This document shows positions 3,936 through 43,663 of a DNA stretch of 52,038 nucleotides, in pieces (the first letter of the stretch is position 1; each line of letters begins with the position of its first letter). The position numbers were made by a program, and so were the translations under genes. The notes beneath the pieces are model-generated. The model saw only the letters and a list, made by a program, of their open reading frames with translations, was not told the DNA's origin and did no database searches. The DNA is from Paraphysomonas bandaiensis (taxonomy: Eukaryota > Protista > Chrysophyceae). The stretch spans positions 1 through 52,038 of the forward strand of contig CBFFRP010000256.1 of NCBI GenBank assembly GCA_965644295.1, written 5' to 3'.

Positions 3936-4405
3936 CTCCTCGTTAGTTAGTTGACTATAGAGACAATGATGGGTGTGTATTGGGTTAATAAGATACCCTC
4001 CATATATACAGAGGCAGGTGCGTGCCTTATACATGTATGTACAGAGTACGTACAGCAGGGGCGTGTGGTTTGCAAGAAAACTCCAGGTTTTTTCCGCCTC
4101 GTCCAGACCGCCGCAACAAAAACATGACAAAGGCGCCTAGCAGCTCCGTATAAAGAATAGAAATCAGGAAATTATATAAAAATGGAGTATATTATATAGA
4201 AATCCGGAAATAGAGAGATAGTGGCGTTTTTTCAGTATTTGTAGTACTGTATGTATATCTCTTGTGATAAATGAACTAGGAATTCCTACTGCTGTATAGT
4301 GCCATTATTACATCCCATATTTTCAGAATTTTGAGAGTGAAAATTGGTTATTTTTACGAAAATGTGGGGTATCTATTTTTATGTACACCACCATATAAAC
4401 TCCTG

Positions 4406-4569
4406 CGTATCTTCTGACGTATGATCAATAGGACAATAGGACAATATAGGACAACAATATGCATCATGCAACCTATACATAGTATATGCACAAACATCGT
4501 ATCTTCTGACGTATGATCAACAGGACAATAGGACAATATAGGACAACAATATGCATCATGCAACCTATA
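4406..4569. repeat. Two-copy tandem repeat, ~92-bp period, with nested GGACAATA units
   Basis: cgtatcttctgacgtatgatcaa...ggacaacaatatgcatcatgcaacctata occurs twice; a third degenerate copy lies near 6788-6845. Confidence 0.85.
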
Positions 4570-4707
4570 TACATGTACATGACTCATAGTTAGCCAAAGA
4601 TATATCTTCCCACAACAACAAGGTTGCCACTAGTAGATATATATCACCCCCCTGCAACTACTTTCAAAGCTGCATTTCCTTGTCATACTATCAACTAATT
4701 CAGTAGG

Positions 4708-5364
4708 ATGGAAAATCAATACATTGAATCGATCTGGGATGATCTTATTGGAGATGTAACAATTAAAAATCTTGTTGAACCGACCCTGCAAGTTATTCCC
4801 AGAAATAATGAAATACGAGGGACTACTGGACTATATTGTCGATCTTACAACAAGGCACACAAAGAACATCAGTTCAACTTGTTACTCTATCGAATAGAGG
4901 ATATTGAACCATATATGAATGACAGAGCACAGACGTTGCATTTAGCGGCCCTTGAAAAGTTTTCCACAGACTATAATATGAAACTGTCGTGGTGCTTGGG
5001 ATTTGCAATTGACGAAGACAGAATTGTCAAGCGAAACTCTTGCAGCAATGTGAAAAGCACTAATTCCAGAAAACTGCCAAACGACATGTACCTGAAACTT
5101 GTTCGAGTTCTAGAAAGAGCTGGTTTATCTGTTCGAGGCGACAATGAAAGTGTCCAGGAAGTTGTAAGCCTTATGAGAACGTTAAATATAAGGCGACCTA
5201 CAGTCAGACCTCCCGTCAGACCTCCCGTCACACCTCCCGCCACACCTCCCGTAGATGAACGGCCGTGGCCAGCCCTTACCAGTCGTTACAAGCCATGTAA
5301 ACATTGTGAGAAAAGAGGGCGCGGCAAATTCTGTACATATCATCAAAAACTCCAAGCAATTTAA
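4708..5364 (+). CDS. Orphan 218-aa protein, Pro-rich linker and C-terminal CxxC-x8-CxxH putative Zn finger (paralog A)
   Basis: Intronless ORF whose frame is preserved in the diverged duplicate at 7073-7717; the one indel is in frame. Confidence 0.75.
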   Translation: MENQYIESIWDDLIGDVTIKNLVEPTLQVIPRNNEIRGTTGLYCRSYNKAHKEHQFNLLLYRIEDIEPYMNDRAQTLHLAALEKFSTDYNMKLSWCLGFAIDEDRIVKRNSCSNVKSTNSRKLPNDMYLKLVRVLERAGLSVRGDNESVQEVVSLMRTLNIRRPTVRPPVRPPVTPPATPPVDERPWPALTSRYKPCKHCEKRGRGKFCTYHQKLQAI

Positions 5365-7072
5365 CTTGTCATTATTGCTACAGTTCCTCAAAATTTGAAA
5401 ACTATTCTCGAGTATATTCGACCTAGACAAAATTGTGTTATTACCTTCACACTATAGCTGGTGTAAAACAATTTGACTAGGTTGAATAGTACTTCCCTAT
5501 GTAATAAGTAATAAGTATTGTACCAATTTTTATTGCCGTGTTTACCATTGACATTGTATTAAAACTTAAATATACCACTATGAGTAATTATACCAACATC
5601 AATCATCTATCGTATCACGCTAGTCCATTACTAAAATGTAGTGAATATCTTATTACAAATAATAGGTGTCTAAAAGTCCTAAGTCCTAGCAAGTACCAAG
5701 ATGCAACTATTTCCGCAATAAGTCTATCGCGCAATGCTAACATAGCTCAACGAGTCTGTAGCAGATTTATCGAAGTTACTAGAGTATCTATAATAATTCA
5801 TTGGGAACTACTTCGCTTTTTATTCAGTAAAAGGTCAATAAAGAGCATAGTACGTGAACAGGAAAAATATACAGCCATGTCATACAGCCATCTAAATCGT
5901 ACAGCTTAGCATTAAGCGATATTATATTACACACCGTTCAGAATTTTTATCACAAACAGCCATTCTGCATATCATTACACAACATGGTACATATTTACTA
6001 CTTCACCACAAGAAGGAACAGGGGCAACCAAGCGCTTGTGTCGCCTAGGCATCCTCTTGCACCGGGAAGTATAAACATCATTGCATCTACAACAACATTA
6101 CAAACCATCACACCATTCAGCATCTCATAGCATCTACAATCAAATCATATACCATCACACAACATAGTACATTCATGTGCGTTCCAGTGAATGTTCCTGC
6201 ATTACGTATGTAGCCTATCATACGAAAATTAAAACAAGCAATTGGATGAATACAGACAAAGTGAGGCCCAACAGTGATATGTGATAATAATAATCCACCA
6301 TATTGTGTACACCACCCTATCCGTAACATACCATACCATACCACAATCTACAGCCCTTTCCAGTTACTCTCTATACAGCCTTATATATAGTCAACCTCGT
6401 CCACTAACTGCATATCACATCTCACAGCTCATGAAATAAGATGATAGGAACATGTTGTCACCTGGCATTCAAGCACTTATGAATGTTTATCTGCTGCATA
6501 TGGCTGTCTCGTCATATACATATACTCGATGCATGCCATGCACTCTGCTGATATGTAACCACAGCCTATCATCCTAAAATCATACCAACCAATTGGATCA
6601 CTCCATGGGAGCACTTGCTGTGCGGTTTTTGTGTAGTAAAACAAGGAGGAGGGTGCGGGCTGTGGCACCTAAAGCAAGTTTGCTGTTAGAAATCCCAAAA
6701 TAAAAATAAAAATTGAGTATATAATATAAAACTCCGGATATTTAGAAATAGTGGCATTTTTTTTCAAATATAAAGATGATGTTTTAGCGTATCTTGTGAC
6801 GTATGATCAATAGGACATTATAGGACAACAACATGCATCATGCAGGCTTTACAGTATATGCCTCCATACCATGTACAGCAGACTGCATGAACACTTGGAC
6901 ATTATAGGACAACAATATGCATCATGCAACCTATATACATGTACATGACTCATAGTTAGCCAAAGATATATCTTCCCACAACAACAAGGTTGCCACTAGT
7001 AGATATATATCACCCCCCTGCAACTACTTTCAACCTGCATTTCCTTGTCATACTATCAACTAATTCAGTAGG

Positions 7073-7717
7073 ATGGAAAATCAATACATTGAATCGATCT
7101 GGGATGATCTTATTGGAGATGTAACCATTAAAAATTTTGTTGAACCGACCCTGCAAGTTATTCCCAGAAATAAAGATATACGAGGGACTACTGGACTATA
7201 TTGTCGATCTTACAACAAGGCACACAGAGAACATCAGTTCAACTTGCTACTCTATCGAATAGAGGATATTGAACCATATAGGAAGGGCAAAGCAAAGACG
7301 TGGCATTTAGCGGCCCTTAAAAAGTTTTCCACAGACTATAATATGAAACTGTCGTGGTGCTTGGGATTTGCAATAGACGATGACGGAATAGTCAAGCGAA
7401 ACTCTTGCGGCAATGTGAAAAGCACTAATTTCAGAACAATGCCAGACGATATGTACCTGAAACTTGTTCAAGTTCTAGAAAGAGCTAAATTATCTGTTAA
7501 AGCCGACAAAAGTTTTCTTCAGAGAACTCTTGATGCTATGAAAAGGTTAACTCTAAGGCGACCTACAGTCAAACCTCCCGTCACACCACCCGCCACACCT
7601 CCCGTAGATGAACGGCCGTGGCCAGCCCTTACCAGTCGTTACAAGCCATGTAAACATTGTGAGAAAAGAGGGCGCGGCCAATTCTGTGGGGTTCATCAAA
7701 AACCCCAAGCACTTTAA
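7073..7717 (+). CDS. Orphan 214-aa protein (paralog B of 4708-5364)
   Basis: Same start MENQYIESIWDD and same C-terminal CKHCEKRGRGQFCGVH motif. Confidence 0.75.
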   Translation: MENQYIESIWDDLIGDVTIKNFVEPTLQVIPRNKDIRGTTGLYCRSYNKAHREHQFNLLLYRIEDIEPYRKGKAKTWHLAALKKFSTDYNMKLSWCLGFAIDDDGIVKRNSCGNVKSTNFRTMPDDMYLKLVQVLERAKLSVKADKSFLQRTLDAMKRLTLRRPTVKPPVTPPATPPVDERPWPALTSRYKPCKHCEKRGRGQFCGVHQKPQAL

Positions 7718-8039
7718 CTTGTCATTATTGCTACAGTTCCTCAAAATTTGAAAACTATTCTCGAGTATATTCGACCTAGCTAAAATTGTGTTATTACCTT
7801 CACACTATAGCTGGTGTAAAACGTCAGTAATGTTATCAATTTGACTAGTAGGTTGAATAATACTTCCCTATGTAATAAGTGTTGTACCAATTTTTATTGC
7901 CGTGTTTAACATCGACATTGTATTAAAACATGAATATACCACTATGAGTAATTATACCAACATCAATCATCTATCGTATCACGGTAGTCCATCACTAAAA
8001 TGTAATAAATGTCTTATTACAAGTAATAGGGATTAGCTA

Positions 8040-8520
8040 AAATTGTTATTAGCAACAATAGGGACTCAAAAGTCAGTGCTTAACGCATATCCTACTCTTT
8101 AACGCTAGGAAGCTGCGTTTGCGTCCTAGCAAGCACCAAGATGAAACTACCTCCGCTTCAACTTTCAACTCTATCACTCAAAGCAATTGAGTGAGCAAGC
8201 AGAGTGTTGATATATCTGATATCTGCTGACTTCAGAATTATTGAGTCCTTAGGGTAAACAGTCCGGATGTTTGACTTCATCAGGCAGCTGAATACCCCGG
8301 ATGCTCTTGAGGTGATCCATTCCCGTATACCTGTTTATTCGTCAACGCCCAAAGACGTCTATACAAGTGACACTTATAAAAGTGTCTTTTGTATCACACA
8401 AGCATTTTTGGTTTTGAGTGGACAGAAAACTATCTGCTAACCATATATGCTGCTCACGTTAGTTTCCCGGAGAATTATTTTCACTTAGCCGCCCTAACAC
8501 CAGTCTGACTTTTTTGAGGA
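8040..8520 (-). mobile_element. ~480-bp SINE-like non-autonomous retroelement, apparently full length
   Basis: Colinear with 38436-38920 along its whole length and starts at the same 5' sequence (CTCAA.AAAGTC.GACT). Its 3' part shares the TGGTGCTTGC..GACGCA.A.GCAGCTT core with the LINE ends. Confidence 0.75.
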
Positions 8521-9635
8521 TATATAATAAAAGTCTTTTTATTTAGCAATAGGCGTTAAAAACCTGCACCAATGCAGTGGCTAGTTGAGTGCTAGACATA
8601 CCATTTAGACCTCTACCCATAACTAATCAGCACAAATTCTATTATCCTACTATTATCCTAAGAAGCTGCTTGTGCGTCGCCGCAAGCGCCAAGGTGCGAC
8701 CACTTCCGTTCTTAATGTGGATTGTGAGTTTCGCCATGATCGTGTGTCCTAGGACTCCCTAGCGGGTGTGATCAGGGGGTCTCCCCTTGGGATGATATTC
8801 CACCAGGCTCTGAGGTACAGGGTTCTGTATTAAGATCCTGAGTGTACCGAGTGCTAGATGTGTGTGCTGAGAGGTGGGTGGTGTGGTGGAATGTGGTGTT
8901 GTCTCAATGCACCGTTTGGGCCTTAGACATAGGTAGAGTTGCCGGAGACGGCGTCGTTGTCGAGTGCATGAAGGTTTCATGGGGGCCGGTGATATGTTCC
9001 TGTGTGTATGAGTGGTGCGGGTCGTGTGTGCGGTGGGCGGTGGTCCAGTCTCGGGTCGTCTGCGGACTCCTAGTAACCGTAGCACACTTGGGCGTTTCCA
9101 TTTCTACGTTTATGACGCGGTCGCGGGAGCTCGAGCTGTGCAGTGGTGATGATGCCTGTCCAGAATCTCTCCACCTGTGGGAAGGAGGGGTTCAAGGCCC
9201 TGCTAGAGAGCCGCTCTAGCGCATTGGTGGTCCAGTGGGGTACGTCCTGATCTCTCAGTACCTCTTGAAGCGCGTTTTTTTGGCTGTGAAAGGCAGTTTC
9301 CCGTATCTGAGTGATGGTGTCATTTGTGCAGTCTAGACACATGTGCTTGAGTGAGTCTAGTCGAAAGCCGCAGTCGGAACATGCGGCTTTGGCCAGGTCG
9401 AGACCGTGCTTGGTTTTAGCCCGGTTTCTCCCTATGCTGAAAGATTTGTCCCATGTCAATGCTTCATTGAGCACTCTCTGGCGTAGGTGTGAACTATCTT
9501 TATTCTTTGATGGACCACCGTCTGCTTGTGCCAGTTTGCGCGAAAGTAGTGCCCCGCTGTCTGTCCAATATCCAGATGCCCGGTTGGGAATGTGACCGTA
9601 GCGTTGATCTCTAAGTGCAGTGTAGGTCTCCAGCG
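8521..9635 (-). mobile_element. 5'-truncated non-LTR retrotransposon 3' end (zf-RVT-like CCHC region plus 3' tail)
   Basis: GRNRAK...CSDC...HMCLDC...ERFWTG peptide, homologous to 32605-33510. C/A-rich sense strand, frameshifted, and ends in an AT-rich tail matching 14899-15116. Confidence 0.75.
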
Positions 9636-10021
9636 AAATACAAATATTATACGCCCACGAAACTGTAGAACTTGAAGAGCAACAGTAATCGCGAGTTATT
9701 ATCGGGCATTATACGCAAATGAGTATAAGAGAAATACTGTGCATAATATCCAATCACTATGATAAACACAGTGACCAACGATACTGACACTTACTAGAGT
9801 GATATTACGAATTACAACGCACCACGTGATGTTTTAAAGCTTATAGACTAATTGGAATCACCAATACGACAGCATCAACACAGTAGGAAGCCATTTAGTT
9901 AGTTGCACAAAAAGTAATTTGTTTGGTAAATGAAAAATAGGCAATACTTCGTTACAGAGAAATATCAAAATTACAACTGTATTATCAATATGAATATATT
10001 TCTAGATAGAGAGACAACTGA

Positions 10022-12359
<2,338 letters not shown>

Positions 12360-13495
12360 GGTTGGTGATGTATAATTATGAAGGAGTGTGATAATGACTT
12401 GGATGGATATACATATACATATATATGCCACTCATGTACACATGTATCCATATGTGGGGATGTATATATGAGTGGCATACAGCCATTGATAAACTTCTAC
12501 TTCATTTTGTGTGGCTCACAAATCAACTAGATGATGACATCACCAGCAGTACCGTATTATAGATTTTATATCGAATCATAATGAAATGATTGGTGTAGGA
12601 TCAATATTGTAACTGTTGTAGGGAGGGAAGATATGATTCGACAGGAAGCTATGCATCAGATGCTTTATATGCAAGAACAAAACGATGGAACAAGTACTCC
12701 TCGTTCAAGAAGTAGCAAGAGATTCTGGAGTGTGACCAGAAAAAAGATCAATCGTTTCACGAAGAATGATAGAGCTGGAGAGAATTATAATATCGGTTCC
12801 CGAAGTTTAACGTGGAAGCATAATTGTAAGGTACGAGGCTATGTGCTTGACTAGATACCTCAGAAGTGTTTGTGCTCATATTTGTGAGATGAAAAATAGA
12901 TATTGAGTCACTTGTAGCTTCGAGTCCATGAACCGCACAGTAGACAAAGATGATACATTCATGGATAAATATGGTTGGCCGTCCAGCCATGAGTGGCATT
13001 CATCATGAACTGCTCCATTCCGATTCGTGCTCTAGAAAAGTATTAATGTCTATTAAACTAAGAAATTGTAGATTTTTGAAACGATTGAAAAGGCTTCGCA
13101 TGGAGTATCACAATGTATGTTCATACATCACAGCCGAATGTAGTTTTCATATAATGGAAGAACTTTTCAACAGTAGAAGAAAAAACATCCGTAAAGTATA
13201 ATGAAGGCTGAATGGATAAAGCTGCAACCTATATCACACATACATAGTACCCTTTACCAAGTGCCTTTGCTCTAATTGTTATAATGTCCCAATAGCACAT
13301 CAATAGGGAATATTGTACTACGCAATGCTTAGAGCACTTCTACCATCTTAACAATTAACAACTCGGGATAATACCATCTTAACATTAGAACCCTCTTCAA
13401 TTCTCAACAAAACCACAATGCAGCAGCAGTAAAGCTTAATCTCGACGAATTTCCATATTCAAGAGTAACAGTGACCTAACCAGTACAGAGTAACA

Positions 13496-13942
13496 ATGAA
13501 AACTGGAGGTCAGCGTCAGCTTCATCAGTTTCGAATGTTACGATGCAAGCAGTCACAACTCGTTATGGATATTAGCGGATGCTCAACGAGCAATGGTGCG
13601 AAAGTTATTCAGTGGTCGTCACATGGTGGAGAAAATCAGCTGTTTCGCTTCGAAGAAAAGGCTGAGGGCTACGGACTGATACGTGTCAAGCACTCTGGGC
13701 TTGTACTCGACGTTTCAGGTGGCTCAACTAAAGATGGTGCGAATATATGCCAATACACTGAACATGGTGGAGATAACCAGTTGTTTCGTTTTGAAGAAAG
13801 GGGTGGAGGTTATGGTGTGCTTCGTAACAAGCATTCTCAACTCGTACTCGACGTTTTTGGTGGCTCAACTGAAAATGGCACGAATATATATCAATACACT
13901 GAACATGGTGGAGATAACCAGTTGTTCCGTTTCGAGGGCTAA
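13496..13942 (+). CDS. Stand-alone ricin-B (beta-trefoil) lectin, three ~47-aa repeats
   Basis: Three copies of LVLDVSGGST.NGA.I.Q[WY]..HGG.NQLFRFE; intronless; no signal peptide. Confidence 0.9.
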   Translation: MKTGGQRQLHQFRMLRCKQSQLVMDISGCSTSNGAKVIQWSSHGGENQLFRFEEKAEGYGLIRVKHSGLVLDVSGGSTKDGANICQYTEHGGDNQLFRFEERGGGYGVLRNKHSQLVLDVFGGSTENGTNIYQYTEHGGDNQLFRFEG

Positions 13943-14886: not shown

Positions 14887-15128
14887 TATATAGTCTGAGC
14901 ATGGTGAGCCTCATAGCACACACTAAGAATGGAAGTGGTCGCACCTTGGTGCTTGCGGCGACGCACAAGCAGCTTCCGTAGCGTTAAATAGTAGGATAAT
15001 AGAATTTGTATTGATTAGTTACGGGTAGAGGTCTAACTAGTATGTCTAGCATTCAACTAGCCACTACATTGGTGCAGGTTCTTAACGCCTATTGCTAAAT
15101 AAAAAGACTTTTAATATATATAGTCTGA
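14887..15128 (+). mobile_element. 218-bp 5'-truncated LINE tail (14899-15116) with 12-bp target-site duplication
   Basis: Reverse-complement match to 8525-8740; flanked by TATATAGTCTGA at 14887-14898 and 15117-15128. Confidence 0.85.
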
Positions 15129-27653: not shown

Positions 27654-27836
27654 ATGTATGTATGTATGTATGTATGTATGTATGTATGTATGTATGTATG
27701 TATGTATGTATGTATGTATGTATTTATGTATGTATGTATGTATGTATGTATGTATGTATGTATGTATGTATGTATGTATGTATGTATGTATGTATTTATG
27801 TATGTATGTATGTATGTATGTATGTATGTATGTATG
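27654..27836. repeat. (TATG)n microsatellite
   Basis: About 45 units with two TATT interruptions. Confidence 0.98.
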
Positions 27837-30826: not shown

Positions 30827-32359
30827 ACCACAACTGACAACTACGGAATTTATTTGAATATATAAATGTATATATTATAATGTAAGATATCATGGATATG
30901 ATACTGCTGTCACTATATGTACATACTGTACATACATACAGTATATGTATGACAGCTCCATTAGCTCTGGGAGATGGATATACGAAGCAGGTTCCTTATC
31001 TGCTGGGTTGACTCAGGCATTGACATGATGAAGATAATACAGGGAGCCTCTCTCTGTTAATCACCTGCATGTGTATATATAAGAGACGTCTAGCACTCCT
31101 CTTCTATATACACACACAGCACTTACATATACACACACAGACCACAGCCCAGATATACAGAGAGAGAGCCCACAGGCTTGATGTATATATAGTCCGATAT
31201 GTATACGTATTATATATATATGGTAACCCATACTTACCGTATATATATACATACTGTGGATACAAACAGCAGACACACAGTAATAACAGGTATCGAATGG
31301 CTAATATTGTGAGCAGCTGTTGTTCGTAGTTGGTGATATAGTGGCTTAAAAGCTGCTTTTAATGAGTTTCAGGTAGGTTATAATCGACGGTTCAGTACAC
31401 GCAGCGGGTATATCTTACATGTACTTTACGATCATAGATTTATGTCAATGTTGCACTTCAAGATCGATAGTCACTATTCTTCCTGTATCAGTACATGTAC
31501 GTTTAAGCTTCGTAACTATTCCTGTTATGAATCACCGTTTGAAATGTTTTGTAAGGTATATATATGCTACAATCTGGGTAACAACTTGCTGTACTATTAT
31601 GGTCGCAAGTTATGCTCGAACTTTATTAACGTGTTGTGCTATACACTACTTCAGAAAATGCATTACTTAACTAGATGGGTATGTTCAATGAAGTTACATG
31701 ATTATAATGTACAGTTGTATGCTCATAAGCACATAAAAGTGTTGGCAATTTCCTCTAGCCATTACTAGCAGTTATCAGTAATTCAGAAAGCATTAAAACG
31801 TAATATACACTTGCTATATAGTATATTATTATAATTGTAGTAAGTGTGCTCTGTAAAAAGAAATATTATAACTCTCATAATTGCAATTGGCTTAAATATT
31901 TTATAGCTAGTTGTACTATTCATTCGAGAGATATACATCGTATTAGTTAACAGTAAGAAACGACTTCACATGAATAAATAAAGCCAAATATCATAACAGC
32001 AAGATACGATGATTGCAAGAGGTATTAGAACCAATCACATGACATAATATATATCCTATACAGTCTCATACCGTATATTGCTTGATGATTATCCAGTCAA
32101 TTGCCATCTCATTTTAAGAATCTTGGTATATTGAGATGTATAATATATATATATATATGGTAAGAGGTATAGGTGAATTAGACATCAAAATACTCCCCAT
32201 CAATAAAATAATCGTTTAGGGTACTCGGGCATACAGACACGAGTATATCAATACAAAACAGTTCTACTGAGGGTAGAAACCATGATGTAATCATTGATGG
32301 TGAATTACACTAATCCTGACGTGTCAACATAAAATAAAATCGTGGGAAACTCTGTAAAT

Positions 32360-32535
32360 CATCCTGAAGTCAGCAGATATCAGATATATTAACGTTCTGC
32401 TAGCTCACTGCGTTTGCTTTGAGTGATCGAGCAAAAGTGGTTGCACCTTGGTGACGCACAAGCAGCTTTCGTAGAGCTAAATAGTAGGCTACATATCAGA
32501 GTTAAGCACTGACTCTTACATGCCTACTATTGCTG
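32360..32535 (+). mobile_element. 3' fragment of the SINE-like element
   Basis: Reverse-complement match to 38460-38640 and 8050-8235. Confidence 0.75.
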
Positions 32536-32549
32536 TGTGTGGGAAAGTC

Positions 32550-33612
32550 TGATTATTACATGAGAACGGTTGTGTACAGAAACTAGTTTATATCTATAGA
32601 CTAACTAATAACTGGATTTGCTATATACTACTAGCGGCGGGCAACAGTCTCGGGACTGCTTGTGCATCGCTGCGAGCACCATGGTGCAACCGTCCCTTGT
32701 ATTGAGGTTAGTCGGGGGTCTACCTTTGAGCAATGTGTCTGGCGGGCCTGTGCCATGGATTATGTGGGGGGTGGGTGAGGCGAGATGTATATGAGAGTGT
32801 AAGTCGGTGGTGGAGATGGTGCTGGTTGTTGAGGTGGGGTTTCGGCCACAAGTAAGGAGGAGTTGTTTCCGGAGTTGTTGCGCTTGCCTCTGTCGGGTCT
32901 GGACTCTTGCAGAGGGTGTAGTTCTTGGGATGGATGTCGCCTGGAGTAGCTGGAGTATTTTTGGTGTCGGGTGAGCATCATGGGACTGGCGTTGCTGTGA
33001 ATGTGTCGTGACCGGTGTCGCCGGTGCCGTGTCTGCGTTGTGGTGTCTGAGTCCCCTATTGCGAAGCATGCGGAGCCCTCCATCATATAGGGGGAGTAGG
33101 ATAGAGACGATGGATTTTTCGAGGGCGTGGAACTGATGTTCGAGCAGTGAGCTGGATATGTGGCGTCCGAATGCGTCGGCCAATTGTGTGGCAGTAATGT
33201 GGCCGGTCCAGTAGCGCTCAACCTGGGGGGTGGTTGGGTTCCATGCGGCTTTGGCTAGTTTGGTTATGGCGGTGTAAAACCAGAGATGGGGGAGCGTGCG
33301 TGTGCGAAGTTTGTCAACAAGCTTATTGTGGTGTGCTTGGTGGACATCTTCACGTATATGAATGATGTCAGGGTGAGTGCAGGTGAGAAGCATGTGCGCC
33401 ACGTTGTCTGTGAGGTGTGCACAATCTGTGCATGTGGAAGCCGTTGTGTGATCATGTCCGGATTTTCCTTTGGCTCGGTTTCTTCCCATATTGCGTAGGA
33501 TTAGTCCCATACGTATGCCGTCTCGCGTATTCGCTCTGCGAGGGAGATGTAGTGTTTGGAGGAGTTATGGGTACGGAGGGGATGAAGCTTGTGTGGGAGC
33601 CTTGTTCCGCTG
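32550..33612 (-). mobile_element. 5'-truncated non-LTR retrotransposon 3' end (second subfamily)
   Basis: GRNRAK...CTDC...HMLLTC...ERYWTG...KGRPP, homologous to 8521-9635. Confidence 0.75.
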
Positions 33613-33669
33613 CGGCTACTATTGCTAATAATAAGATATTCACTACTCTAAACCATTAAGTCATCCCTC

Positions 33670-34243
33670 TTGGTCCACATCACTGCTCTACAACTGGCCG
33701 ATGCATTCGGGCACAACATATCCACCTCACTGTTCGAACATCAGTTCCACACTCTCGGAACCCCCCTCACCTCTATTCTGCTTCCCTTCTATAACGGAGG
33801 AATCGCAACACTGCCACAACAACAGCAATACTGATCACGACTCCAGTACATTCACAGCGACACCAAACCCAGGATACTCACTCAACACCAATTCCGGAAA
33901 CAAATCCTCCTTGTCTTCAACCGCACCCCCACCACGTCGCACAGAAGCATTTCCGCCATCAATTTACACTCTCATATACACATCGCCCCATCCACCCCTC
34001 AACTAATCTGTGGCACAGGCCCGCCTGACACTTTCCCTAAGGTAGACCCCCCGATTAACCTCACTACAAGGGACGGTTGCACCATAGTAATCGCAGCGAT
34101 GCACAAGTAGTTCCGAAATGGTTAATCCATCACTAGTATAATATAGCAAACCAAGTTATTAGTAAGTCTATAAAAATAAATAATATACATAGATTCTAGT
34201 CACAACCATTCTCATCATAGTATATATAATATGTAATAATCAG
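33670..34243 (+). mobile_element. Inverted, deleted copy of the same LINE 3' end
   Basis: Matches the reverse complement of 32550-33205 (e.g. ggcacaggcccgcc, acaagggacggttgcaccat, gcagcgatgcacaag). Confidence 0.8.
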
Positions 34244-35544: not shown

Positions 35545-36602
35545 CCACTACTACACCATCACACTATACACCCATACACCATCTCACTATAATATACCAC
35601 TATATACCATCTCACTATATACCACTATACCATCTCACTATACATCCATATACCATCTCACTATATACCACTATACCAACTCACTATACACCCAGATACC
35701 ATCTCACTATATACCACTATACCATCTCACTACTATATACATCCATATACCATCTCACTATATACCACTATACCATCTCACTATATTATACATACCACCT
35801 CACCATACACCACTGTACCATCTCACTATACATCCATATATATACCATCTCACTATACACCCATATACCATCTCACTATACACACACCACTATACCATCT
35901 CACTATATACCACTATACCATCTCACCATACACCGATATACCATCTCACTATATACGACTATACCATCTCACTATACATCATCACAATACCACCTCACCA
36001 TAGACCACTATATATCATCTCACTATACACCCAGATACCATAATATCTCACTATACACCCAGATACCATCTCACTATATACCACTATACCATCTCACCAT
36101 ACACCGATATACCATCTCACTATACACACACCACTATACCATCTCACTATATACCACTATACCATCTCACCATACACCGATATACCATCTCACTATATAC
36201 GACTATACCATCTCACTATACATCATCACAATACCACCTCACCATAGACCACTATATATCATCTCACTATACACCCAGATACCATAATATCTCACTATAC
36301 ACCCATAATATACCATCTCACTATATACCACTATACCATCTCACCATACACCGATATACCATCTCACTATATACGACTATACCATCTCACTATACATCAT
36401 CACAATACCACCTCACCATAGACCACTATATATCATCTCACTATACACCCAGATACCATAATATCTCACTATACACCCATAATATACCATCTCACTACAT
36501 ACCACTATACACCCATAATATACCATCTCACTTTACACCCATATACCATCTCACTATACATCCATATTATACCACATCTCACTATTTTATAACACTATAC
36601 CA
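35545..36602. repeat. ~1.05-kb complex minisatellite built on TATACCATCTCAC, with higher-order blocks
   Basis: The core recurs dozens of times; a ~105-bp block recurs at ~35951, ~36196 and ~36370. Confidence 0.92.
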
Positions 36603-38435: not shown

Positions 38436-38920
38436 GTAGTAAATGTTTTATTATTAACAACAGTAGGCGTGTAAGAGTCAGTACTCAACTCTGATATATA
38501 TTATCCTACTATTTAGCGCTACAAAAGCTGCTTGTGCTTCACCGCAAGCACCAAGGTTCAACTACTTTGGCTCTATCGCTCAAAGCAAACGCAGTGAACA
38601 ATCAGAATGTTGATTTACCTGACACCTGCTGACTTAAGGATTTTTTTTGAGCTCTTAAGGTGGTAAACAACTCTGATGCTTGACTTCTTCAGGCAGCCCA
38701 ACAATACCCAGGATACACTTGAGGTGGGCCCATACCCGGGTCGTGTTTATTCGTCAAGGCCCAAAGACTTCTACACAAGCATTTGGCAATATGAGTGGAC
38801 AGAAGAATATCTACAGACTATATATGATATATGCGGCTCACATTAGTTTCCCGGAGAAATATCTCCGGTACTTATCCCCCAGAACACCACGAAAAGGTGA
38901 GAGTCCGACTTTGTTGAGAG
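38436..38920 (-). mobile_element. 485-bp SINE-like element with 12-bp target-site duplication
   Basis: Flanked by ATGCAGAATATA at 38424-38435 and 38921-38932; colinear with 8040-8520. Confidence 0.85.
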
Positions 38921-40706: not shown

Positions 40707-41087
40707 CACATACATACATACATACATACATACATACATACATACATACATACATACATACATACATACATACATACATACATACATACATACATACATA
40801 CCTACATACATACATACATACATACATACATACATACATACATACATACATACATACATACATACATACATACATACATACATACATACATACATACATA
40901 CATACATACATACATACATACTGTACATACATACATACATACATACATACATACATACATACATACATACATACATACATACATACATACATACATACAT
41001 ACATACATACATACATACATACATACATACATACATACATACATACATACATACATACATACATACATACATACATACATACATACA

Positions 41088-41116
<29 letters not shown>
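40707..41116. repeat. (ATAC)n microsatellite, left flank of the Crypton-like element
   Basis: About 100 units. Confidence 0.98.
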
Positions 41117-41119
<3 letters not shown>

Positions 41120-41859
41120 ATGAGTGCATATGTGAAGCTTTTTGCTACAACTGTGAAGCTACGTATTCTCTGTATACTGTGTATATGGTATACATAGGTA
41201 TACGTGTGCGTATATGGGAGTATACCTCTGGGTGACTTCGAAGTGAATGTGATGTGGATATATGCATATATGAGTACATGATTCAGAGGCTCTTTTGCTG
41301 CCTCTACTCACAGACACGAGTGAGGACTATCAACAGTGTGTGGTCATAGTGGTGTATAGTGGTGTGTGCTCCTCATGAGGAGAGAGACTCGTATGATCAT
41401 ATGAATAATACCGCAGCAGATACACACACATACATACAGAACACCCACACACACATACATGCATAGACCGCATGGAGCACCCTGAATAGCCATATAACTG
41501 AACCAGAAGCGTTCACCACTAATGCGCCTCTGAGTATGTTATTTTATATGGTGTATCTGCATTAATAGTGCTGTGGAAGCATGTGTATCCGTTAGAAGAC
41601 TGTGACGATGTTGTTTATGGAGCTGGTGGTGATCATCCATATGAGGACTTCCTCTATAAGGATAACATATGAGTAATATGAGAGTGTGGATGAGTTGTGG
41701 AAGTGGTGAGAGTGTATGTATGTGGTATAGGGACGCCTCTTACGACCCAACCAGTGACGATACTGTCGACCTTATGACTCCTAATACTGTATCATTCGTA
41801 ATTACCTGCTGTGTCCTGTAAGTATGACTGAGGTTTACATATAACATTCATCAAGATGT

Positions 41860-42052
41860 AGGTGATGTCGTAGATAAGATGTGTATGCATGTATGAAGGT
41901 GATGTCGAAGATAAGATGTATGTGCATGTATGTATGAAAGTGATGTCGAAGATAAGATGTATGTGCATGTATGTATGAAGGTGTTGTCGTAGATAAGATC
42001 TGTGTGCATGTTTGTATGAAGGTGTTGTCGTAGATAACATATGTATGTACAT
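41860..42052. repeat. 37-41-bp tandem repeat, 5 copies, inside the element
   Basis: Unit AGGTGATGTCG(T/A)AGATAAGATGTATGTGCATGTATGTATGA. Confidence 0.9.
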
Positions 42053-42499
42053 ATATTACAAGCGTTGTGTATCAGACCGTGTAGAGTAGTTTACTAATCA
42101 TTTATCAAGATGACGGTGCTATTGTAGCTAAGAGATTGTAGCGTTTGATATGCACTACTTAAAATTAAAGAACTATCATTTATCAATGCCGTACACGATT
42201 CAACTTGCAGATTTCATTGTACAAGCTACGTACGAAATTCACAATTATATCCAGCACACTATAAAATATTTCATCATTAGCACGTGGAGGAACATTATTG
42301 AGGTTGCTGTATCCATCTGGCAGCAGCCCATTATCACTCACGATAGTATTAACAAATGACCTCACGCACTGTACTAGCTCGAGTACAAGCAATAACATCA
42401 CTCTTCTGTATGTCAAACGTCAACCGACGACTTATGAGACGATATGGTCTTATTCCGCTCACCCTATCTCCATAGAACCATAAATCATACAGACAGATC

Positions 42500-43260
42500 A
42501 ATTGAATTCTGGCTGTAAATCTTCAACCCTTTGAAACGAAGTGCATAATCTGATCATCTTATCAGTTAAAGGGTTTCCACCATTTCATATTACATTCATG
42601 ATTATCTTGCATAATGCTCTTCTTTATCACTGACTTTTATGTCCGCTTTGTGCCCTTGCTCTTGAACAAGCATTGAGTCACCTTTCCAGCCAAAAAGTTC
42701 AATCATCAATGAAGCTACTGAATCAGATCTACTCATCAAATTCCACATCAGTACAAAATATGCCCACATGAACAAGATATAGGACCAACTGCCTGCAATG
42801 GCATAGTGTACCATTAACATCATCTTCGTCGCTAACGTGTTACAGCCATTCATTTTTAACGGACTTTCTTCTTCAGTTCATTGATATCTTTCTTGTAGCC
42901 ATCTACGGCCTGGCTTAGTTCTACATATGGCCAAAGTAATCAAGACAGATGTCTTTCGGGAATGGAATCTTCAAATTTTCATCATCATCAGAGCTTCAGG
43001 GTACTATGCTTTATACCACGCTGTAATATGGCCAACCTTTGCTTGTATGCTGCTTTCATTCCTGCTTTAGTTCGTTTCTTCTTATAGTCAGATACATTAT
43101 CAGCATTGGAGTCAACAGACACAACAGGCTGTCGGCGTATACGGCCACTTCCTCTTCCCCTTTGAGGCAACTCTTCTTCCCTGTCTGAGTCTGTCTCGTT
43201 CATGTTTGCAGTAAGTATGGTCGAATATTGATATATGCCACTAACGGCTGTCATGTTCAA
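42500..43260 (-). pseudogene. Degraded CryptonS-type tyrosine recombinase, N-terminal half
   Basis: Across frameshifts and stops: KAAYKQRL, LKIPFPKDICLDYFG, GYKKDINELKK, FMWAYFVLMWNLMSRSDSV..L....FGWKGDSM.....HKAD......EHYA. Confidence 0.7.
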
Positions 43261-43489
43261 GGAGAATAGTAGAGTATTCTAACAGTGTAAAGTGACAATT
43301 TCCCTGTAAAATGGTATTTTTATTATATAAAAATGCCTGTTTTTGTGTGAAGCCTAAAGCTTCACATATGCATTGAATATGATTATCTACTATATATTTG
43401 TCCGTATTCGAGGCATATGTGAAGCTTTTGGCTTCACACTTGGGGTTTTTAGATGAGGAAAAAACCCATAGAGCTTCACATATGCAGTC

Positions 43490-43631
43490 CATACATACAT
43501 ACATACATACATACATACATACATACATACATACATACATACATACATACATACATACATGCATACATACATACATACATACATACATACATACATACAT
43601 ACATACATACATACATACATACATACATACA

Positions 43632-43663
<32 letters not shown>

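Follow-up and report, generated by a model that had tools for sequence, protein, structure and literature searches.

A non-autonomous, internally deleted Crypton-type transposon set between (TATG)n microsatellite tracts in a stramenopile genome

Cryptons in the broad sense are elements whose only transposase is a tyrosine recombinase with the catalytic residues R-H-R-Y. In excerpts of PMC3212892 and PMC13465315 they are described as lacking terminal inverted repeats, with two CryptonF exceptions listed in PMC3212892, which also describes their ends as free of inverted repeats and conserved DNA signals. According to PMC13565253, the transposition mechanism of Cryptons still awaits experimental demonstration. 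CryptonS elements carry TATGG at their termini, as an earlier, sequence-only reading of the locus described here (the original prediction) had stated and the excerpted PMC3212892 confirms. In CryptonF-1_cRei, a terminal CACCG recombines with a CAYCG target (PMC9977147, in excerpt). The original prediction was also correct that another, animal Crypton group targets microsatellites: this is CryptonV, which inserts in microsatellites and comes from cnidarians (Kapitonov and Jurka, 2012, as cited in the excerpted PMC8869645).

Within the 52,038-bp stretch of DNA analysed here (the window), two (ATAC)n tracts that share one orientation lie 2372 bp apart. The tract on the coding-strand 3' flank (40708..41117) is 410 bp long (102 units, 98%), and that on the 5' flank (43490..43661) is 172 bp long (43 units, 98%). 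Between them, on the minus strand, lies a 2372-bp element (41118..43489 without its cores), which we classify as a non-autonomous, internally deleted Crypton-type tyrosine-recombinase transposon. Its ends carry a perfect 15-bp inverted repeat, with one arm at the 3' end (41125..41139, plus strand; 7 bp inside the core) and the other at the 5' end (43472..43486, minus strand; 3 bp, GAC, inside the core). Read on the coding (minus) strand, the first bases are TATGG (43493-43489), and at its far end the element meets TATGT (41117-41113). The original prediction had described tracts of one orientation 2.37 kb apart, a perfect 15-bp inverted repeat less than 10 bp from each of them, and these two terminal pentamers; all of this is borne out.

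The two pentamers have in common a 4-bp direct repeat, TATG, which on its own is weak evidence inside a TATG tract. The 3' core (41114-41117) is the last four bases of the longer tract, and the 5' core (43490-43493) reads TATGG together with position 43489. A simpler reading of the recombination that had been proposed between TATGG and TATGT is a core of four bases, TATG, identical at both ends. Chance was rejected as the origin of the inverted repeat: in 20,000 random pairs of 30-mers drawn from the window, perfect inverted repeats extended to 12 bp at most, and none reached 13, let alone 15.

The 15-mer motif, at 0-1 mismatch, occurs four times in the window, always within the element: three copies crowd into the first 135 bp of the 5' end, and the fourth sits at the 3' end. 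The inverted repeat had been taken to mark the element ends, which is right for both ends; the two further copies near the 5' end had been missed. One is a third perfect copy (43358-43372, minus) and the other has one mismatch (43412-43426, plus). Both lie inside a palindrome with 35-bp arms (43345..43439), and each forms part of one TGTGA-N11-TCACA dyad; the two dyads, at 43346 and 43418, are the only ones in the window. At the 3' end, a second TGTGA half-site (41152..41160, plus) lies 21 bp from the first. The terminal arms are predicted to be recombinase binding sites.

On the minus strand the element holds the remains of one recombinase gene. An N-terminal core-binding (SAM-like) region (42878..43254, candidate ATG at 43254) is broken by frameshifts. 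A stop-free frame of 91 aa (42605..42877) includes the first catalytic R, in WNLMSR, and K, in GHKAD, and crosses the main deletion junction (42595..42641), where about 320-350 codons of the relatives are missing, H-x-x-R and Y among them. A conserved C-terminal domain, possibly GCR1_C-like, survives as a pseudogene piece with stops and a frameshift (42192..42594; profile positions 553-651, E 1e-14). Smaller losses amount to about 50 codons at 42925 and about 9-10 near 42865. Relatives accordingly align in pieces, N-terminal (43158-42925), first catalytic box (42924-42641) and C-terminal domain (42594-42192), and the full-length ones (~690-870 aa) map to 42874-42641 and 42549-42340 with nothing between.

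The predicted recombinase with the signature WNLMSR..W.GD..K.D is therefore present as a peptide, in frame at 42877-42605, in a gene that is internally deleted and not merely decayed. The first R and the K are kept in the window copy; because H-x-x-R and Y are deleted, this copy is unable to integrate itself. An autonomous element was for the same reason rejected. Judged from its sequence, the window copy cannot be active and is non-autonomous.

A phmmer search with the 91-aa frame found 169 proteins at E<=0.001. HMMER thus detected relatives where a word-based protein search found none; a Pfam search of the window frames gave no match to the element's gene, PDB sequence searches gave nothing useful, and Rfam gave no match. 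Across 63 relatives the catalytic positions are nearly invariant (R221 in 63/63, K248 in 62/63, H333 in 60/63, R336 in 62/63 and Y370 in 62/63, the Y assigned by alignment position), and the H/W position is Q in 26, W in 26 and H in 11. Foldseek matched the structure model of one relative, P0009 (pLDDT 83), to Cre at E 2.7e-5. On realignment the model superposed on Flp with Z 15.4 (rmsd 3.2 over 228 residues) and on Ndc10 with Z 14.5 (rmsd 3.9 over 236 residues), and it also agrees with the Xer fold. This fold and these conserved residues show that the family encodes tyrosine recombinases, as Cryptons in the broad sense do. The original prediction is supported in that the peptide belongs with tyrosine recombinases and that the element is a repeated transposon of this kind, has defined ends and resides in a stramenopile.

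Named relatives come from Spumella vulgaris, Ochromonadaceae, Phytophthora, Aphanomyces, Thraustotheca and Lagenidium, and intact ones occur in both oomycetes and chrysophytes. Among eight relatives examined of a lysyl-tRNA synthetase (LysRS) encoded in the window, the four best species-named ones are from chrysophytes, at 72-75% identity, which makes a chrysophyte the likely host. Many relatives of the recombinase lie on short contigs of 2.4-3.6 kb, which circles, collapsed repeats or transcripts would fit equally and which we left out of the argument. P0073, a full-length relative whose contig measures 2.9 kb, bears the label of an archaeal MAG protein and is likely a second mis-binned element.

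We identified one related locus, L007, among 153 candidates in a scan of genome contigs; it is 42% identical to the query in the best segment. L007 (1-2730) sits in a bacterial genome bin, which holds no second copy, and has an intact recombinase gene. This gene contains two GT-AG introns, and L007 is therefore likely a eukaryotic stowaway in that bin. The contig ends overlap by 55 bases and close into a 2675-bp cycle, which could be either a DNA circle or a head-to-tail tandem array. At the junction, a 13-bp inverted repeat surrounds an 18-bp spacer. In a tree of 81 residues from 46 sequences (P0348 left out), L007 groups with the window family with weak support (0.87).

The ends of L007 resemble those of the window element. 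Compared after the data had been seen, their arms are identical at 9/12 positions (P about 0.005 for a random 12-mer), their sites follow one order (+,-,+ at the 5' end and - at the 3' end), and in each element 42 bp separate the first TGTGA from the second; other likeness in DNA is confined to a short coding stretch. Counted likewise after inspection, L007 has three TGTGA-N10-TCACA dyads, with two dyads reached in 0/3000 Markov sequences, and the two dyads of the window element were matched in 2/3000. The break of the L007 contig falls within the spacer, with 4 bases left before the right arm. A random break would be unlikely to land there, the spacer making up 18 of 2675 positions. Assembly contigs generally break where the graph branches, and this position suggests that the graph branched at the 3' end of the element into flanking host DNA. 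In the window, identity with the tract stops 3 bases before the arm. The L007 junction contains neither a TATG tract nor TATGG. A search with a junction pattern gave three viral matches, none with the recombinase. The L007 spacer ends in a TA-rich run; a (TA)n-like target would be a guess.

The C-terminal domain of L007 (2101-2568; window counterpart 42192-42594, minus) gave a model of pLDDT 95.9 with no clear match among solved and viral structures (Z at most 3.5; no Foldseek match at E<=0.001), a result that indicates neither a new fold nor a function. In the Atlas, a whole relative scored 0.98 to a cluster annotated with NDC10_II (77%) and GCR1_C (56%), and the C-terminal part alone scored 0.84, which is a lead only. 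Pfam NDC10_II matched 1/63 relatives (E 0.032), and GCR1_C is absent from the 25 of 45 Pfam families listed for those 63.

These data bear on the question whether an ordinary CryptonS, targeting TATGG, simply landed in a microsatellite by chance. Its stramenopile host, the TATGG at one end and a size within range once the deletion is restored would all fit. The second end, however, is TATGT, and the nearest Atlas cluster combines NDC10_II with GCR1_C, a domain that, by the description in PMC3212892, CryptonS elements lack. The signature also differs from all 11 CryptonS representatives in Additional file 4 of PMC3212892, an alignment that holds only 11 of the listed CryptonS families. Read by eye, these mostly show W[Y/H]xxGR..D, RxKT and HSxRRG. 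WNLMxR occurs in 0/11 of them, contrary to the original prediction that WNLMSR is typical of CryptonS. Conversely, CryptonS-type motifs occur in 0/248 of our relatives (a set from which P0004, a 20-stretch repeat protein, had been removed as a spurious match), and WN[LMI]xxR occurs in 195/248. CryptonS membership was rejected on this motif comparison, and a chance landing of such an element seems to us highly improbable.

CryptonF representatives in the same file, also read by eye, show xxGxHxLLRGE..R and GKTNQ. By its motifs, the protein clade corresponds to neither set of representatives published in 2011, CryptonS or CryptonF, and in architecture it is closer to CryptonF.

The element belongs to a repeat family. 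The stretch or part of it is present in 20/24 listed sequencing runs (14 studies), one of which may be the window's source; two metatranscriptome runs among those listed have small shares (0.15-0.18). Contigs from 4/4 compared runs cover 30/30 bins in many variants, and in these runs both end regions are deeper than the middle. The deleted form recurs. Deletion-junction contigs without differences reach depths of 962 (X3) and 22.5 (X4), compared with about 95-110 and 3-4 for lone variants, which suggests several copies of this form, depth not being copy number. The junction tail is common to three database proteins, P0002, P0152 and P0153, the last of which has diverged. Residues lost by the window copy are retained in P0153 and P0143 and in contigs whose loose ends lie at 42867 and 42923. 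We infer that the main deletion is older than the smaller ones and that deleted forms kept spreading after it. The variants and nested deletions point to dispersal of the family.

Such spread might have been passive, driven after the element's death by recombination between (TATG)n tracts, gene conversion or segmental duplication, with no role for a recombinase. The window copy is catalytically dead, no intact partner came to light for this host among the sequences compared, and the many truncated copies with a tract right at the break would fit tract-mediated rearrangement. We nevertheless regard passive spread as improbable, for several reasons. First, the four end motifs are nearly perfect though the gene between them has decayed. 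Second, the end layout is conserved in L007, a distant and intact relative. Finally, a non-autonomous family typically accumulates nested deletions such as those of the diverged copies, and non-autonomous families are listed for CryptonS (PMC3212892, in excerpt).

Several observations connect the family, indirectly, to (TATG)n microsatellites. Among the 15 contig joints listed of 26 in the compared runs, 6 join family sequence to (ATAC)5, as do 7 of the 12 between-letter rows listed of 27. Joints to a 21-base (ATAC)n were found at 41179, 41180, 41183, 41223, 41420-41478, 41670, 41792 and 42273; the sides of the microsatellite joints are 21-22 letters (<30), a length that often gives false joints, and the sequence between is 'not known' for 5/6. 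In another copy, the 3' arm is followed by a spacer six bases longer and then by a tract. At the 5' end, a contig of depth 1025 runs unbranched for 18 letters past 43480, which would be 5 bases beyond TATGG. A lone 1.1-kb contig continues past 43480 for 44 letters in X3 or 22 in X5 and then stops, which would fit entry into a repeat, the usual way in which such contigs break. One X3 copy enters non-repeat sequence at 43438.

Because the contig comparison left out the terminal letters of other copies (43481-43512 at the 5' end and 41098-41127 at the 3' end), insertion into (TATG)n across the family is only likely. Run X18 yielded no contig at the 5' end of the element. None of the 24 listed loose ends, of 262, falls at an element terminus, which proves little. 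An 18-base end pattern matched one viral and five metagenome sequences, which were taken as chance matches because they have no further likeness to the element. Related-locus scans found none in viral contigs and none in plasmids, and the end-pattern, junction-pattern and viral-contig scans returned no relative with host flanks. Among the sequences compared, neither a circle junction of the window family nor an empty allele was seen.

A different order of events would also place tracts beside the element: insertion at short TATG sites anywhere, followed by growth of the tracts through slippage, so that the element seeds microsatellites. Sources for slippage are at hand in the TATG cores and in the TATG-rich 3' third, where TATG/CATA density reaches 8+8 per 300 bp against a background of 1.9 per strand; the 3' non-coding region includes a TATG-rich 41-bp tandem repeat of 4.5 copies (41856..42037). 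In other copies a low-complexity AC/ATAC patch (41417..41465) is joined to long (ATAC)n (depth 589, 3 contigs), possibly through expansion in place, and about half of the microsatellite joints fall in this patch. The flanking tracts, at 410 and 172 bp, are also unequal. Against seeding, both flanks are long, pure, of the same orientation and in phase. A third tract, at 27654-27836, has no element remnant, and targets therefore exist independently of the element. Microsatellite-specific Cryptons have moreover been reported (PMC8869645, in excerpt). We consider seeding unlikely, while giving it real weight. The third tract itself is a 183-bp (ATGT)n and may be an unused or vacated target.

The window element is an internally deleted Crypton-type copy. 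We think it rather probable that an intact partner's recombinase moves it and that it came into a (TATG)n tract already present, through site-specific recombination of a predicted circular form at the TATG core. The proposed mechanism follows the circle model reportedly put forward by Goodwin et al. in 2003 and the way in which CryptonF-1_cRei pairs CACCG with CAYCG (PMC9977147). The recombinase of an intact partner is predicted to bind the TG(C/G)AT(A/C)TGTGA arms beside the core, and the phased TGTGA dyads may serve as arm-type sites for the C-terminal domain of that enzyme. Excision would join the ends into a circle with an arm-spacer-arm junction, as in L007. The end layout is ...TATG-GAC-arm and arm-CTCATTA-TATG..., and the circle would therefore have a single TATG flanked by the inverted arms, for which every TATG of a tract offers a partner of perfect 4-bp identity. 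Recombination between the two would divide the tract without shifting its phase or truly duplicating a target, and excision would leave a single uninterrupted tract.

In simple recombinase sites the spacer is 6-8 bp (PMC3212892, in excerpt). Here it would be 14-20 bp. Phage lambda provides a core-plus-arm arrangement for comparison, and by analogy the long spacer, phased sites and separate C-terminal domain suggest a lambda-like arrangement in this family. More tentatively, the family might represent an unclassified, stramenopile-wide Crypton lineage with a Flp/Ndc10-like recombinase, a C-terminal domain unlike any solved structure, lambda-like att sites made up of inverted arms beside the core and helically phased TGTGA dyads, circles abundant enough for metagenome assembly and families that home to simple repeats, (TATG)n included; this broader proposal we hold as a possibility short of probable. 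Were it true, it would provide the first visible Crypton circle and defined substrates for a eukaryotic microsatellite-targeting recombinase.

The window also contains several features beyond the element. A tandem duplicate of about 2.36 kb (4400-8030; matched blocks 93-98% identical) has in each unit an unannotated ORF of ~220 aa (4699-5364 and 7064-7717) that ends CxxC...C. An ORF with ricin-type beta-trefoil lectin repeats (13475-13942, plus; Pfam RicinB_lectin_2, E 7.5e-32) has a 141-bp internal repeat. Pieces of another dispersed repeat lie at 8291-9708, 14897-15121, 32356-34123 and 38499-38779; they include related ORFs without a Pfam match (9070-9708 and 32605-33564) and are possibly retroelement ends. 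A satellite of ~1 kb (35555-36585) has a 23-bp unit and higher-order repeats.

Taken alone, the window copy is a dead, deleted transposon. Together with L007 it makes two distant elements with a common end motif, site order and spacing; L007, whose gene is intact, closes into a circle on assembly. The pair names a recombinase, putative binding sites, a core and a candidate target, and thus makes the circle model directly testable. A literature search turned up no paper that describes a Crypton circle or a (TATG)n target, nor one on the clade or its end motifs; Repbase and Dfam lay outside its scope and may name the clade.

The subterminal inverted repeats, 15 bp in the window element and 13 bp in L007, set these elements apart from the general description of Cryptons. 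With CryptonS, as excerpted from PMC3212892, the family shares stramenopile hosts including oomycetes, a size of ~3 kb, a conserved C-terminal region, non-autonomous derivatives and, in the window element, TATGG at one end. The window element nevertheless pairs TATGG with TATGT, whereas CryptonS has TATGG at both termini, and microsatellites are mentioned nowhere (0 occurrences) in the main text of PMC3212892. With CryptonF (PMC3212892 and PMC9977147, in excerpt) the family shares a single recombinase gene with an extra C-terminal domain, a Flp/Ndc10-like fold, a short terminal motif that matches the target (PMC9977147) and, as a possible further likeness, the nearest Atlas cluster, NDC10_II plus GCR1_C at 0.98. 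In contrast, the signature of the present clade (WNLMxR, HKGDQ, HS.RKG and DRY) is absent from the eight CryptonF representatives, MarCry1 and Cn1, and the window element has a 4-bp core where CryptonF has 6-bp repeats, as well as subterminal inverted repeats and microsatellite flanks.

Starships, as excerpted from bioRxiv 10.64898/2026.09.21.753150, are likewise eukaryotic tyrosine-recombinase elements with short end microhomology and a circle that joins the 3' and 5' ends; unlike the window family, with ~3 kb and one gene, they are giant fungal cargo elements with DUF3435 captains. CryptonV is, by description, like the window copy a tyrosine-recombinase DNA transposon in a microsatellite (PMC8869645, in excerpt). 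It comes from cnidarians, whereas the named relatives here are stramenopiles, save for one archaeal-MAG-labelled protein. If the targeting holds true, microsatellite homing would extend from the animal CryptonV to a protist lineage.
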